From the NCBI RefSeq assembly GCF_058153355.1, contig NZ_CM177019.1: a stretch of 64,000 nt of DNA. One strand, 5' to 3'. Of this stretch, positions 29,041 through 33,508 are shown piece by piece; the stretch's first letter is position 1, and each line of letters starts with the position of its first letter. A model generated the notes under the pieces. It made no database searches, was not told the origin of the DNA, and saw only the letters and a program-made list of their open reading frames with translations. Position numbers and translations under genes: made by a program.

Positions 29041-30069
29041 AGAGATACAGTGGGTTATAAGACTTGTTAAGTAAAGATTTTTTAAAAGAACAACAGTATC
29101 GATTATATTTTCGAAGGGGAGGTGAATATCAGGAGTGACTCAGTGAGATGTGTCTCAGTTATAAATAAATTGATAAGTAATTATTAATAGTCGTGAGGTT
29201 AAATCATTTTCAATTTCTATAATGCTTACAGATTGATGTTTTAAACTAATTCAGTCCGATGCAATCTAATTCCACTGAGGTGGCTTCACAGCATAAATTT
29301 TAACGTTTAAGTTGCTCTCCTGCTCTTCATCCAAATGATTCATAGGAGATAGAAATGAACACTAATCCACTTAATACAAATTTCTTAAAACTTAAATTTC
29401 CACCACTTTTTGAGGAAGTAACACAGGCCACACAAGCCATAACGCATGCACCGGCAGAGTTGATCACAGGAGTACAGTTGTCGGTAATGTCACTCGCGGC
29501 TCAGAGTGTGGTTGTGTTTGAACACAGTGATGGAAGAAGAAGCCCTGTGTCTCTTTACAGCATTGTACTGGCTGAATCAGGGGAGAGGAAAACGGCAGTG
29601 TGCAATCTCCTGCAGAAACCGATACAAGACTTTCAGAAAAAGCAACTGAAGAATTATGAGGAGAAAATAAATGTCTATGAAGCTGATTTGCAGTCATGGG
29701 CTGTCTTGAACAAAGCTATTATCCGCCAGATTAGGAAAAATATCGAGAAAGGAGGTGATAGTGTTTCTGAGCAGGAGAAATTGAGAAAGCATTACATTAA
29801 TAAACCTACCCCTCCAAAGCGACCAAAGCTTTTATACAGTGATGCGACACCTGAGGCTATCATCCAGGGACTGGTTGAAAGCATAGGTACGTCAGGTTTA
29901 ATCTCCGATGAAGGCGGTGTGATTTTTAATGGGCGGGCGATGGGTAATACACCTCTTTTTAATCAACTCTGGGATGGTGGGGGCGTTGATGTGGAGCGTA
30001 AAGGGCATCGACTGAACATTGATGATGCACGGCTAATGAGTAAGCGGCTCGCCAGAACCGTATTGATAT

Positions 30070-31641
30070 TTACTGAGAGCTCAGATCAACTTTCCAGGGC
30101 AACAGATCGCGTACCCGGTTTGCCGGCCAGTCCTGGATATGTTCAATGACGTAACGCAGCCACTTTTCTGGCTCCACATTGTTCAGACGGCATGTGCCGA
30201 TCAGCGAGTACAACACCGCAGCATGTTCACCACCGCTGTCAGAACCCGCGAAGAGCCAGTTTTTCCGGCCTACGGCCACTCCCCGTAAGGCGTTCTCTGC
30301 GATGTTGTTGTCGATTTCCACCCAGCCATTACTGCAGTACACGTTCAGTGCATCCCACTGTTTCAGCAGGTATGCGAACGCTTTTGCCGTGTCCGAGTGA
30401 CGCGACAGTGTTTTCATCTGTTGCTGTATCCAGTCATACAGTGACTGCATCAGTGGCGCGGCTCTGGCTTTTCTTGCCGCCAGACGCTGTTCTGCTGAAC
30501 AGCCCCGGACCTCTGCCTCGATGGCATACAGTTCACCGATACGCTGCAGGGCTTCCGTGGTGATGTCGGTGGGCACTCTTGCATGCACATCGTGGATTTT
30601 TCTCCGGGCATGAGCCATACATGCGGCTTCCGTTATTCTGCCGGATTCGTACAACGCCCGGTAACCACCGTAAGCATCGGCCTGAAGCACTCCGCTGTAA
30701 CCGGCCAGATGATTCTGTGGATGGATACCTTTCCGGTCCGGGCTGTACGCGAACCAGACCGCCGGAGGCATTTCCGAACCGGCGTTACGGTCATCACGAA
30801 CGTAGACCCACAGCCGGGCAGTCCTTGTTTTACCGCTGCCCGGCTCCTGGACCGGAACGGGGATATCATCGGCATGGACTTTACCGGGCATCAGCACATA
30901 CTGGCGCAGGATGTCATACAGCGGTTCCAGCAGTTCAGCAACAGCACCTGTCCAGCGCCCCAGTGTGGCACGGCTCAGCTCCACGCCCTGACGACGGTAT
31001 ATTTCTGACTGGCGGTATAACGGCAGATGGTCTGCATATTTTCCAGCGACAACATGGGCCAGAAGCCCCGCTCCGGCATAACTGCGTGCAATGGGTTTTG
31101 AAGGCACCGGAGCCTGCACGATATGGTCGCACCGGCAACAGGCCAGTTTCGGACGTTGTGTTTCGATAACCTTAAAGGCGCTGCTGATAAGCTCCAGTTG
31201 CTCTGACACATCACATCCCAGAGAACTGAGTTCGCCACCACAGGCCGGGCAGCATTCCTCTTCCGGACGGATGACCCGGGTTTCACGGGGAAGTGAGGCA
31301 GGTAACGGTTTACGGGCTGAAGACTGGCGCAGGGGAGATGGCAGTACCGGGTCATATTGCTCACCCAGCGTTTCCGCCATTTCTTCCTGAAGAGCGCTGA
31401 TTCGCTCCTGTGCTTCCTGTATCTGCCGTTCGGTTTTTGCACGAAGTTTTTCTGAGCTTTTACCGAACTGCATGCGCTGCAGTTTTGCAACCAGCGCCTT
31501 CAGCCGGTTGATTTCGGAAGCATAAGCCGCCACCCGCTGTGAGAGCAGGCGGTTGTATTTCGCCATCTGGCGGATGGTGTCCTGTTGCGTCTGCAACAGT
31601 GCCCGCAGGCGGGCATTCTCATGAGCAAGTGAGGTGTCCAT
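30070..31641 (-). CDS. IS66-family transposase (TnpC)
   Basis: 523-aa ORF with N-terminal coiled coil, CxxC...CxxC zinc motif and DDE region. Confidence 0.85.
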
Positions 31642-31660
31642 ATCCTCACTTTACAACGGG

Positions 31661-32008
31661 TTATATGCGGATGCCAGCGCGTTCCGTTCGTTTCGGGTGT
31701 TTCCAGTCGATGCCCTCAAGAAGCATGGATAACTGGGCCGGAGTAAGGTGCACCTTGCCGTCACGGGTGACCGGCCAGACGAAGCGGCCCCGTTCCAGGC
31801 GTCTGGTGAAGAGGCACAGTCCGTCGCTGTCAGCCCACAGCACTTTTATCTGGTCACCCCGGCGTCCGCGGAAGATGAACAGGTGTCCGGAGAACGGGTC
31901 ATCCTTCAGGACGTTCTGAACTTTTGAGGCCAGGCCGTTAAAGCCATTTCGCATATCGGTGATACCTGCAACCAGCCAGATACGCGAACCTGCAGGGAGA
32001 GATATCAC
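31661..32008 (-). CDS. IS66-family accessory protein orfB (TnpB)
   Basis: 115-aa ORF MISLPAGSRIWLVAGITDMRNGFNGLA...; overlaps orfA stop. Confidence 0.8.
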   Translation of the reverse strand: MISLPAGSRIWLVAGITDMRNGFNGLASKVQNVLKDDPFSGHLFIFRGRRGDQIKVLWADSDGLCLFTRRLERGRFVWPVTRDGKVHLTPAQLSMLLEGIDWKHPKRTERAGIRI

Positions 32009-32433
32009 CGTCTCAGCTCCTGTATAAGCAAGGACAGCAGATTTTCATTCACTGCCCCGTTCAACCGAAGGGTGCCGTTTCTGAACGTAATCTCACAGGA
32101 GATGCTGTGTATTTCCGGTGTTACTGACGGTCTTGCGGTCAGTGGCTCATTAGCCGGAGCAGTTGGGAGTTGGGCATCAATAGTGACAGGAATTAACTGA
32201 GATTCTCTGCCTGATTCTGATGATGGCAATTTTATCTTCCCCTGCCGCCATTTCTGACGCCATTTGAACAACAGATTGGCATTAATACCATTGTCCAGGG
32301 CCAGTCTGGAAATTGAAACACCTGGCTGGAATGATGCTTCTATGAGTCGTTGTTTGAATTCAGGAGGATAATTCAGGCACCCTTTAGGCCTTCCCGGAGA
32401 GGCATTTTTTTGTATATCTGACATTTTTATCAC
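32005..32433 (-). CDS. IS66-family accessory protein orfA
   Basis: 142-aa ORF, first gene of the IS66-type operon. Confidence 0.8.
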   Translation of the reverse strand: MIKMSDIQKNASPGRPKGCLNYPPEFKQRLIEASFQPGVSISRLALDNGINANLLFKWRQKWRQGKIKLPSSESGRESQLIPVTIDAQLPTAPANEPLTARPSVTPEIHSISCEITFRNGTLRLNGAVNENLLSLLIQELRR

Positions 32434-33508
32434 CCACTATTAATTTAGTGGTGGATACTTTGTCCAAAGCATCGGGAATTTGCCAGACGGTCCTGATAAG
32501 ACGCTTACGCTAATGACGCTTATTGTCACGCAGAAAAATGAATTGAATTTATTCAGGAAAAAGCATGGTGCTCGTGTCCAGGGGGATGGTTTTTTTGCCC
32601 GCTGTCTGTGGTCTGTAACTACATCAACGCAGGGTATAAGAGCTCATCAACCTGATGTCCACGTAGATACCAGCGTTCTGGATAAATTTAACAAACGAGT
32701 CGAGGAATTACTTGAACAAACGCTTGCCGGAACCACTCCCAGCGTTCTGCGCTTTTCTGTGGAAGCGGAACATCGCTTTGCTCAATATCAGAATGAAATT
32801 GAGCAAAGAATATTAACAGAGAAAGGAGGGCATGAAGCACTGCCGGGAATTTTATCAAAGCTACCTGAGAATGCGGTAAGGCTGGCAGCATTAATGCACT
32901 TTTTTTATGAATTTAAGGGTGATGAGATTGATGTAGCAACACTAAACTATATTTTTATGATTATGGAATATTATTACCAACAAGCAGTCAATATTTTGAC
33001 TGCCAGCCTGAGTTCCGATGAGGAGGACGCTAAAAGACTCTGGGAGTGGTTAATGACAGGCCATTTCTCGACGTCTACCTCAGTCGCGAAGTCAGAGATA
33101 AGACGTTATGCGCCCTACCAGCTGCGTGATGTAGTCCGCTATAACAAAGCGTTAAAATATCTTGAGGATATTGGTAGGATATATATAAAAAAGTACAAAA
33201 ACGGTAACGGTACTGTCAGTCAAGTGATTGATATCAATCGTTAATGTAAGATATGCATAACTACTCCTCTGCTTTTCCTGCTCCGAAGAGCAGAAATCGC
33301 AGGGGGGGGGGATTGCCTGAAAATTTTCCTGCATGAAAAGCACACTTTGTATCCGTATAGGAAAAACCAGACGACAACAGTGTAAACCTTACGGTTAACA
33401 TTTTAACCCAGGTCTGACGACTGTCAGGTTCGTGCTGATGCTTTTTATTTTCTGTGAAGCAGAATGCTTTGCTGAATGACATTTTGAGTTTCTGTATTAC
33501 AGGAGTGA

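Follow-up and report, generated by a model that had tools for sequence, protein, structure and literature searches.

The window analysed here is a stretch of 64,000 nucleotides from the contig NZ_CM177019.1. It belongs to an E. coli-type chromosome and holds a genomic island flanked by the tRNA gene ileY and the tmRNA gene ssrA (48819-49181). A P4-type tyrosine integrase gene (47373-48614; NF007246, 934 bits) adjoins ssrA, and the cargo lies between ssrA and ileY. This is the arrangement of a CP4-57-like island. The region is collinear with E. coli R32_14_1F, and the gene neighbourhood is the same as in K-12. The island carries defence cargo, a PD-Lambda-4 system and a pair formed by a helicase and a DUF2290 protein. 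The neighbouring PD-Lambda-4_B gene is frameshifted in the window.

The centre of the locus is a yfjI-like gene, present on the + strand in two separate fragments. The 5' fragment (29355-30039) contains the complete codons 1-228 and, of codon 229, the first base. From there, its open reading frame runs 36 codons further into foreign DNA, up to a stop at 30149; an exact look-up of the resulting 264-aa chimeric product found none on record. The 3' fragment (32517-33244) holds the rest of codon 229 up to codon 470 and the stop. Upstream lies a yfjJ-like gene (28369-29040, + strand), with a Pfam match to PF11726 (YagK/YfjJ C-terminal domain, E=4e-47) and 36% identity to K-12 YfjJ. In R32_14_1F, RefSeq names its product 'inovirus Gp2 family protein'.

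Between both fragments is a complete insertion sequence of 2469 bp (30040-32508), with its genes on the - strand. Its GC content is 54.5%, against ~43% in the interrupted gene. The ends are the inverted repeats GTAAGCGGCTCGCCAGAACCGT (30040-30061, + strand) and GTAAGCGTCTTATCAGGACCGT, read inward on the - strand (32487-32508). They are identical in 7/7 first bases, 15/22 and 20/30. By the usual convention, the first, proximal to tnpC, is IRR, and the second, proximal to tnpA, is IRL.

The three genes of the element are intact. The tnpA gene (32005-32424, - strand) encodes an accessory protein with an HTH, 139 aa long if counted from an ATG that we chose after the annotation of an E. albertii plasmid copy. 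An upstream GTG at 32433 would give 142 aa. TnpA matches Pfam HTH_Tnp_1 and the NCBIfam model NF047595 for IS66-like TnpA (88.8 bits, cut-off 74). Its stop overlaps the tnpB start in GTGA (32005-32008). The tnpB gene (31661-32008, - strand) encodes an IS66-family accessory protein of 115 aa (Pfam TnpB_IS66, E=7e-40; NCBIfam IS66_TnpB). This protein has no relation to the IS605 TnpB nuclease. After a spacer of 19 nt follows tnpC (30070-31641, - strand), the gene of a DDE transposase of 523 aa. TnpC covers profile positions 1-283 of the 284 in PF03050 (DDE_Tnp_IS66, E=4.4e-104) and reaches 479 bits with NF033517 (transpos_IS66, cut-off 180). The Pfam domains zf-IS66, LZ_Tnp_IS66 and DDE_Tnp_IS66_C are present as well. 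An Rfam scan gave no RNA family within or near the element.

Members of the IS66 family (IS66/IS679) have the order tnpA-tnpB-tnpC, with overlapping tnpA and tnpB and a DDE-type TnpC. Their inverted repeats of ~20-30 bp start with GTAAGCG, and they duplicate 8 bp of the target. This definition is reportedly due to Han et al. in 2001 and Gourbeyre et al. in 2010. The element at 30040-32508 shows an IS66 DDE TnpC, overlapping tnpA and tnpB upstream of tnpC, imperfect GTAAGCG ends and an 8-bp duplication. In these features, it does not differ from the family. The first-pass annotation had assigned the element to this family, and the profile matches of the three proteins, together with the ends and the duplication, agree with it. 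The motif GTAAGCG also occurs at window position 9, and we took it as a chance 7-mer instead of the end of a second IS66 element. The sizes and order of the ORFs left of gabT look compatible with the K-12 core-gene neighbourhood.

Directly outside both inverted repeats stands the same 8-mer, GCTAATGA, at 30032-30039 and at 32509-32516. Reading of the sequence and a script gave the same coordinates, as had been claimed from the letters alone. By chance, such a match in one fixed register would be expected with a probability of 4^-8 (~1.5e-5). An 8-mer is short, and the script found three occurrences on the + strand of the 64-kb window, the third at 18606. The two copies could then be a chance repeat, and the flanking ORFs two separate genes, with the element between them or in the place of other DNA. 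The comparison with R32_14_1F decides this point. In that genome, the flanks are contiguous and a single GCTAATGA occupies the site. The BLAST blocks for window 9350-30039 and 32509-43709 overlap there by exactly 8 bp (20678-20685). We consider this empty site decisive evidence for an insertion with duplication of the target. In addition, the exact 52-mer of the empty site is present in 7 of 11 homologous loci.

The gene itself gives the same answer. In-silico excision of the element and one GCTAATGA by script rejoins the halves into 1413 nt in frame, which encode 470 aa, the length that the first-pass annotation had proposed. The rejoined protein matches Pfam PF13148 (DUF3987) over residues 32-390, across the junction (E=3.5e-75, 253.9 bits, cut-off 27). 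Its alignment with K-12 YfjI is full-length (30% identity, 450 aa, E=7e-68). A Walker A-like motif, AESGERKT (residues 73-80), and a Walker B-like motif, LISDEGG (182-188), are conserved in K-12 YfjI. Two further searches were negative: the PDB sequence search gave no match at E≤1, and NCBIfam holds no model for a YfjI-like protein.

Intact relatives are available for comparison. R32_14_1F carries the uninterrupted gene, 99.5% identical, as a RefSeq 'YfjI family protein'. The closest intact allele is in CP057243 (99.86%). Homologues of 470 aa were found in three complete E. coli genomes at identities of at least 98.6%, and a continuous DUF3987 protein of this length in 9 of 10 further contigs. 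The remaining contig of these ten has the same gene frameshifted independently. In every case among them, the yfjJ-like gene adjoins the intact gene. Absence of any intact homologue of the rejoined ORF had been named beforehand as grounds to reject the split gene; such homologues exist, and the yfjI-like identity also stands. The empty site and the continuous homologues thus refute a chance repeat between separate genes, to which we give practically no probability.

Insertion sequences are a classic source of misassembly. It could be argued, for this reason, that a repeated element was misplaced inside the gene by the assembler. Nevertheless, a misplaced repeat would not yield a perfect target duplication of the family's usual length. 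Moreover, in an independent draft assembly (GCA_015332025.1) a contig breaks at precisely the same point. An artefact is therefore exceedingly improbable. We found no evidence that contradicts the insertion itself.

The proposed mechanism follows from general knowledge of DDE transposases. TnpC would join the ends of the element to a target cut with an 8-bp stagger, and repair of the resulting gaps would produce the 8-bp duplication. Our main reading is that a complete, apparently functional IS66-family element moved by transposition into a yfjI-like gene of 470 aa, at codon 229, in a CP4-57-like ssrA island. The event would be recent and belong to one lineage, with the probable loss of a helicase. 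We assign to this reading a probability of about 0.96. For annotation, it means that the ORFs 29355-30149 and 32480-33244 should be described as one pseudogene (yfjI-like::IS66-family) and not as two hypothetical proteins.

The same element occurs at other loci. An E. albertii plasmid has a 2469-bp copy with the same ends, 95.8% identical and flanked by its own duplication, CCTTATTC. The draft genome GCA_047897835.1 has another of 2469 bp with the same ends, 100% identical in nucleotides, with the duplication CACCGGAC. So, three independent insertions share identical termini and differ in their 8-bp duplications (GCTAATGA, CCTTATTC and CACCGGAC). The only full-length copies that we found are on four E. 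albertii plasmids (95.7-95.8%), in GCA_047897835.1 and in SRR31942252; the last two encode the exact proteins of the element. None is present among 5,426 complete E. coli genomes. These independent copies, including the identical one elsewhere, suggest that the element is functional.

How old is the insertion? The first-pass annotation had argued from the intact duplication that it is relatively recent. The conclusion holds better than the argument. An intact 8-bp duplication is a weak clock because its 16 bases seldom mutate even over long times, and they carry almost no information on age. The recency is supported by other observations. Across the 1413 nt of the rejoined gene there is one substitution private to the window, and neither half has an indel or a stop. 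The genes of the element are intact, and a 100%-identical copy exists at another locus. Finally, the two halves are apart in none of the 5,426 complete E. coli genomes, only 6 of which carry the gene at all. A search for the exact left junction, as a 38-mer, gave no match in 100,044 species-representative genomes, which shows only a strain-level event.

On the other side, the insertion could be of old date and fixed across a lineage of some size, with the intact duplication uninformative. At least two draft assemblies hold the exact 243-aa C-terminal fragment. In the one that we examined, GCA_015332025.1, a contig ends at the insertion site. This contig begins at window 32511, two bases into the right-hand duplication, and matches the window at 99.985% identity across 6.7 kb. 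If the assembly had broken at the same repeated insertion, a contig end of this type would be the result. An exact look-up did not find TnpA or TnpC on record for this assembly, so this particular element is only a candidate cause of the break. The shared fragment and the contig end indicate that the event extends beyond a single isolate. An old insertion nevertheless seems unlikely, given the single private substitution, the near-identical intact allele, the identical copy of the element and the absence from the complete genomes. An evolutionarily recent insertion, restricted to a lineage, is thus the supported reading. The junction sequence with GCTAATGA can serve as a lineage marker in strain typing.

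DUF3987 proteins form a family of the SF6/MCM-like type, probably replicative helicases, which carry the Walker motifs A and B (PMC4889955). For one PriCT-DUF3987 protein, 5'-3' helicase activity was demonstrated, and the Walker motifs of the family were described (PMC11724360). The family is linked to the replication of mobile elements. By its membership in this family, the product of the interrupted gene is a probable replicative helicase of the island. The yfjJ-like product would be its partner in the replication module of the island, probably as the initiator.

A close known counterpart is YfjI of the K-12 cryptic prophage CP4-57. Both proteins are similar in length (469 aa in K-12, 470 aa here), contain the DUF3987 domain and conserve the LAESGERK and SDE motifs. 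Likewise, the island that holds each gene is at ssrA and has a P4-type integrase, and a yfjJ homologue adjoins the gene. However, the proteins are only 30% identical and the K-12 gene is uninterrupted. The order is also inverted in the window: the yfjJ-like gene comes first and the yfjI-like gene second, and the integrase gene is on the other strand. DUF3987 helicases from phages and mobile elements (for example AgaPH and the phage SF6/MCM-like proteins) share the Pfam family, both Walker motifs and a neighbour of the replication-initiation or primase type. In contrast, the neighbour in the window is of the YagK/YfjJ (inovirus Gp2) type and not an AEP or DnaG primase. The protein in the window lacks the PriCT domain.

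The element follows codon 228 and divides the gene at a point past the Walker B motif and ahead of the C-terminal half. Because the gene is split at this point, the island's own helicase is most likely abolished. The insertion probably disabled the helicase of this CP4-57-like defence island, which would stay integrated and incapable of autonomous replication. The insertion thus marks the island as probably unable to replicate. As a whole, the event is a gene knock-out by a mobile element, of a known kind, and leaves the current understanding unchallenged.

A different matter is whether the insertion was selected. It could immobilise the defence island or remove a costly helicase, or an outward promoter of the element could drive the 3' fragment or the downstream genes. 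The defence cargo of the island and the independent frameshift of the same gene in another contig are consistent with selection. But simple decay would account for two inactivated alleles in some twelve loci, and the frameshifted PD-Lambda-4_B gene in the window suggests a general erosion. The outward promoter was rejected as the driver of the 3' fragment. No sigma-70-like site on the + strand reads out of the end of the element at 32508, and the promoter-like sites in the region (8) are at the level expected by shuffling (6.2±2.5). We consider a selected insertion quite improbable. A related idea is that the helicase gene of this family of islands, at ssrA and elsewhere, is repeatedly inactivated, by the element here and by the frameshift there, and that selection locks the defence island into the chromosome, with the insertion as a step of domestication and not as random damage. 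It is speculative and we hold it unlikely.

The element has a mosaic structure when compared with ISCro1 (from Citrobacter rodentium and E. coli), its closest named relative. Nucleotides 1-1968 of the element, which include the tnpC-proximal end, tnpC and tnpB, share 97% identity with ISCro1. TnpC is nearly identical (515/523 aa, 98.5%), as is TnpB (112/115 aa). Both elements have the GTAAGCG terminus at the tnpC end (28/30 against the ISCro1 end) and an 8-bp duplication; an ISCro1 copy (L003) is flanked by GTTTTAAC. However, the similarity ends exactly at the tnpA/tnpB junction, and blastn does not align the tnpA module or its end. ISCro1 TnpA has 225 aa, in contrast with 139-142 aa in the window, where the N-terminal ~100 residues of the ISCro1 protein are absent. 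The two proteins are 47% identical over 117 aligned aa. The tnpA-proximal end matches the corresponding ISCro1 end in only 19/30 positions, and the length of ISCro1 is 2699 bp against 2469 bp.

The ISfinder convention considers as the same IS, or as isoforms, elements with ~95% or more nucleotide identity. Over the whole element, ours does not reach this identity to ISCro1, as only nucleotides 1-1968 align, at 97%. The comparison goes a long way to show a natural chimera by module swap. In it, tnpB, tnpC and one end are ISCro1-like, and tnpA with the other end derives from a different lineage. The independent copies suggest that such a chimeric element still transposes with heterologous ends. 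It adds one modest example of how IS66-family elements exchange modules at the tnpA/tnpB boundary.

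The yfjI-like gene is split by an IS66-family element at 30040-32508. It is an ordinary IS-mediated pseudogenisation in a decaying, defence-carrying genomic island. The first-pass annotation had described this event, and the finding is real, with both its location and its interpretation right. The insertion is useful for annotation and typing, and its novelty is small.

The inserted segment measures 2469 bp and lies between two copies of GCTAATGA (30032-30039 and 32509-32516). Its GC content is 54.5%, against 42-44% in the gene fragments flanking it. Read inward, the ends are GTAAGCGGCTCGCCAGAACCGT and GTAAGCGTCTTATCAGGACCGT. 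They are identical in the first 7 bases and match at 15 of 22 and 20 of 30 positions. The exact 8-bp duplication claimed outside both ends was confirmed by reading the sequence, by script and by an empty site, since E. coli R32_14_1F has one GCTAATGA where the flanks join. Compared with 41 kb of this chromosome, the window forms two collinear blocks, 9350-30039 and 32509-43709, which share exactly 8 bp in the reference. The chance of an 8-mer match in a fixed register is about 1.5e-5. On the plus strand of the 64-kb window, GCTAATGA occurs once more besides the duplication pair.

Three ORFs fill the minus strand of the segment. The tnpA gene (32005-32424 from its ATG) matches HTH_Tnp_1 and the NCBIfam IS66-like TnpA model, and tnpB (31661-32008) matches TnpB_IS66 and IS66_TnpB. 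The 523-aa tnpC product (30070-31641) carries DDE_Tnp_IS66 (E=4e-104), together with zinc-finger, leucine-zipper and C-terminal domains, and matches NCBIfam transpos_IS66. The tnpA stop overlaps the tnpB start in GTGA, and 19 nt separate tnpB from tnpC. With these matches, the overlap and the spacing, the element agrees, as first proposed, with the definition of the IS66 family in every feature visible from sequence. Despite the shared name, its accessory protein TnpB has no relation to the RNA-guided TnpB of IS200/IS605 elements; the RefSeq note says so too.

Nucleotides 1-1968 of the element have thousands of matches at about 97% identity among 5,426 complete E. coli genomes, annotated as "IS66-like element ISCro1 family transposase" and tnpB. 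None of these matches extends beyond nt 1968, and no full-length copy was found in the 5,426 genomes. The similarity to ISCro1 (97%) stops exactly at the tnpA/tnpB overlap. TnpC and TnpB are 98.5% and 97.4% identical to the ISCro1 proteins. In contrast, ISCro1 is 2699 bp long (in E. coli 90-9281), and its TnpA has 225 aa instead of 139-142 aa; the short TnpA aligns with the C-terminal half of the longer one at 47% identity. Likewise, 28 of 30 positions match ISCro1 at the tnpC-proximal end (30040 side), but only 19 of 30 at the tnpA-proximal end (32508 side). Separate relatives of the tnpA module, 92-96% identical, occur in about ten E. coli records. Together with its inverted repeat, this module comes from a different, short-TnpA lineage of IS66 elements. 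The break in similarity, the differing TnpA and end, and the separate relatives make the element a module-swap mosaic and a distinct member of the family, not ISCro1 proper.

The same 2469-bp element is present in E. albertii plasmids, 95.8% identical, collinear from end to end and with identical termini. At about 4% divergence these copies still have the mosaic architecture, so the mosaic is an established lineage. The E. albertii copy sits within a Tn3-family transposase gene, with its own duplication, CCTTATTC. GCA_047897835.1 has a 100% identical copy adjoining a serine-protease autotransporter gene, with the duplication CACCGGAC. The ISCro1 copy of 90-9281 is bounded by GTTTTAAC. Hence all four insertions, including that of the window, have an 8-bp duplication.

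When the element and one repeat are excised in silico, the joined halves encode a protein of 470 aa, in line with the predicted in-frame gene of about that size. Its Pfam DUF3987 match (residues 32-390, E=3.5e-75) runs across the junction at residue 228/229. The rejoined gene is 99.5% identical over all 1413 nt to the intact gene of R32_14_1F, annotated "YfjI family protein". The protein aligns with K-12 YfjI over its full length (30% identity, E=7e-68), conserving LAESGERK (Walker A-like, 73-80) and SDE (Walker B-like, 182-188). So, the target is yfjI-like, as stated earlier. As found, the reading frame of the 5' fragment continues for 36 codons within the element, up to a stop at 30149. We found nothing suggesting expression of the 3' fragment.

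The gene directly upstream is yfjJ-like (YagK_YfjJ_C, "inovirus Gp2 family protein"), and its product is 36% identical to K-12 YfjJ. An identical YfjJ-like protein followed by the DUF3987 gene is present in all ten further contigs. The 470-aa ORF is intact in nine and independently frameshifted in one (L013). DUF3987 proteins have been described as SF6/MCM-like, probably acting as replicative helicases in phages and mobile elements (PMC4889955), and one PriCT-DUF3987 protein is a Walker-motif-dependent 5'-3' helicase (PMC11724360). The pair is probably the island's replication module, whose predicted helicase the insertion would have destroyed. The K-12 namesakes are only 30-36% identical to the window proteins. 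Moreover, yfjJ-like precedes yfjI-like (28369-33244) on the strand opposite the integrase gene, whereas in K-12 CP4-57 yfjI precedes yfjJ on the integrase strand. In the ten contigs, the order of the conserved module is CbtA toxin, CbeA antitoxin, DUF987, RadC, DUF932, YfjJ-like, DUF3987, HTH_26, two hypotheticals, WYL regulator, GTPase and AlpA. It occurs in several chromosomal contexts, such as by dinI/ybjQ (CP057243) or with a different integrase (SRR8095702).

The intact duplication had been taken as a sign of recent insertion. The recent age stands on better evidence; the duplication alone is a weak clock. Both gene halves are free of stops and indels. Against ten intact alleles, the only window-private substitution is at nt 754 (D252N), and the closest intact allele has 2 differences in 1413 nt. 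The IS genes are all intact, and an identical copy exists at another locus. Among the 5,426 complete E. coli genomes, the gene occurs in only six and the split arrangement in none. Two draft contigs encode the exact 243-aa C-terminal fragment. The one examined (from GCA_015332025.1) matches at 99.985% over 6.7 kb and stops 2 nt into the right duplication, as expected if the same insertion had broken a short-read assembly. The assembly has no exact TnpA or TnpC on record, so we only infer the same insertion there. The clean halves, the near-identical allele, the absence from complete genomes and the draft contigs suggest that the insertion is recent but common to a small lineage.

In its core flanks, the window shares 96-98.6% identity with E. 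coli; therefore, it is E. coli-type chromosome. The island is bounded by a tRNA(CAT) gene (17522-17597, corresponding to K-12 ileY) and the tmRNA gene (48819-49181), with a P4-type integrase gene at 47373-48614. K-12 CP4-57 has the same neighbourhood, flanked by gab genes at one end and by smpB, ratA, yfjF, bamE and recN at the other. PADLOC identifies a PD-Lambda-4 anti-phage system (38718-43525, minus strand). Its gene A (39674-43525, 1283 aa) agrees with the model over the entire length. A 1-nt frameshift divides gene B into 39095-39628 and 38718-39047, whereas the R32_14_1F gene is intact (303 aa). Adjoining the integrase gene, a UvrD-like helicase (669 aa) and a DUF2290 protein (223 aa) are encoded at 44239-46922 on the plus strand (PADLOC "Helicase" and "DUF2290" candidate-defence models). 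In R32_14_1F, a different 3.7-kb hypothetical gene occupies this slot, which makes the cargo here variable.

A second insertion sequence, a 1426-bp IS4 with a 448-aa IS4-type transposase ORF, lies at 50793-52218 (50782-52229 with its duplications). Its 11-bp duplication, GCTCATTGAGC, is perfect, and the insertion lies in a palindromic terminator-like hairpin between yfjF/rnfH and bamE; this site is empty in R32_14_1F. The ygaQ-like alpha-amylase-family gene (14709-16962, minus strand) is interrupted by a premature stop at codon 268 and also carries a 1-nt indel, which makes it a pseudogene, like K-12 ygaQ, whereas R32_14_1F keeps the gene intact (2253 nt). Finally, Rfam naRNA4, a REP-derived nucleoid-associated RNA, matches at 9211-9287 (minus strand), between the gabT and gabP homologues.
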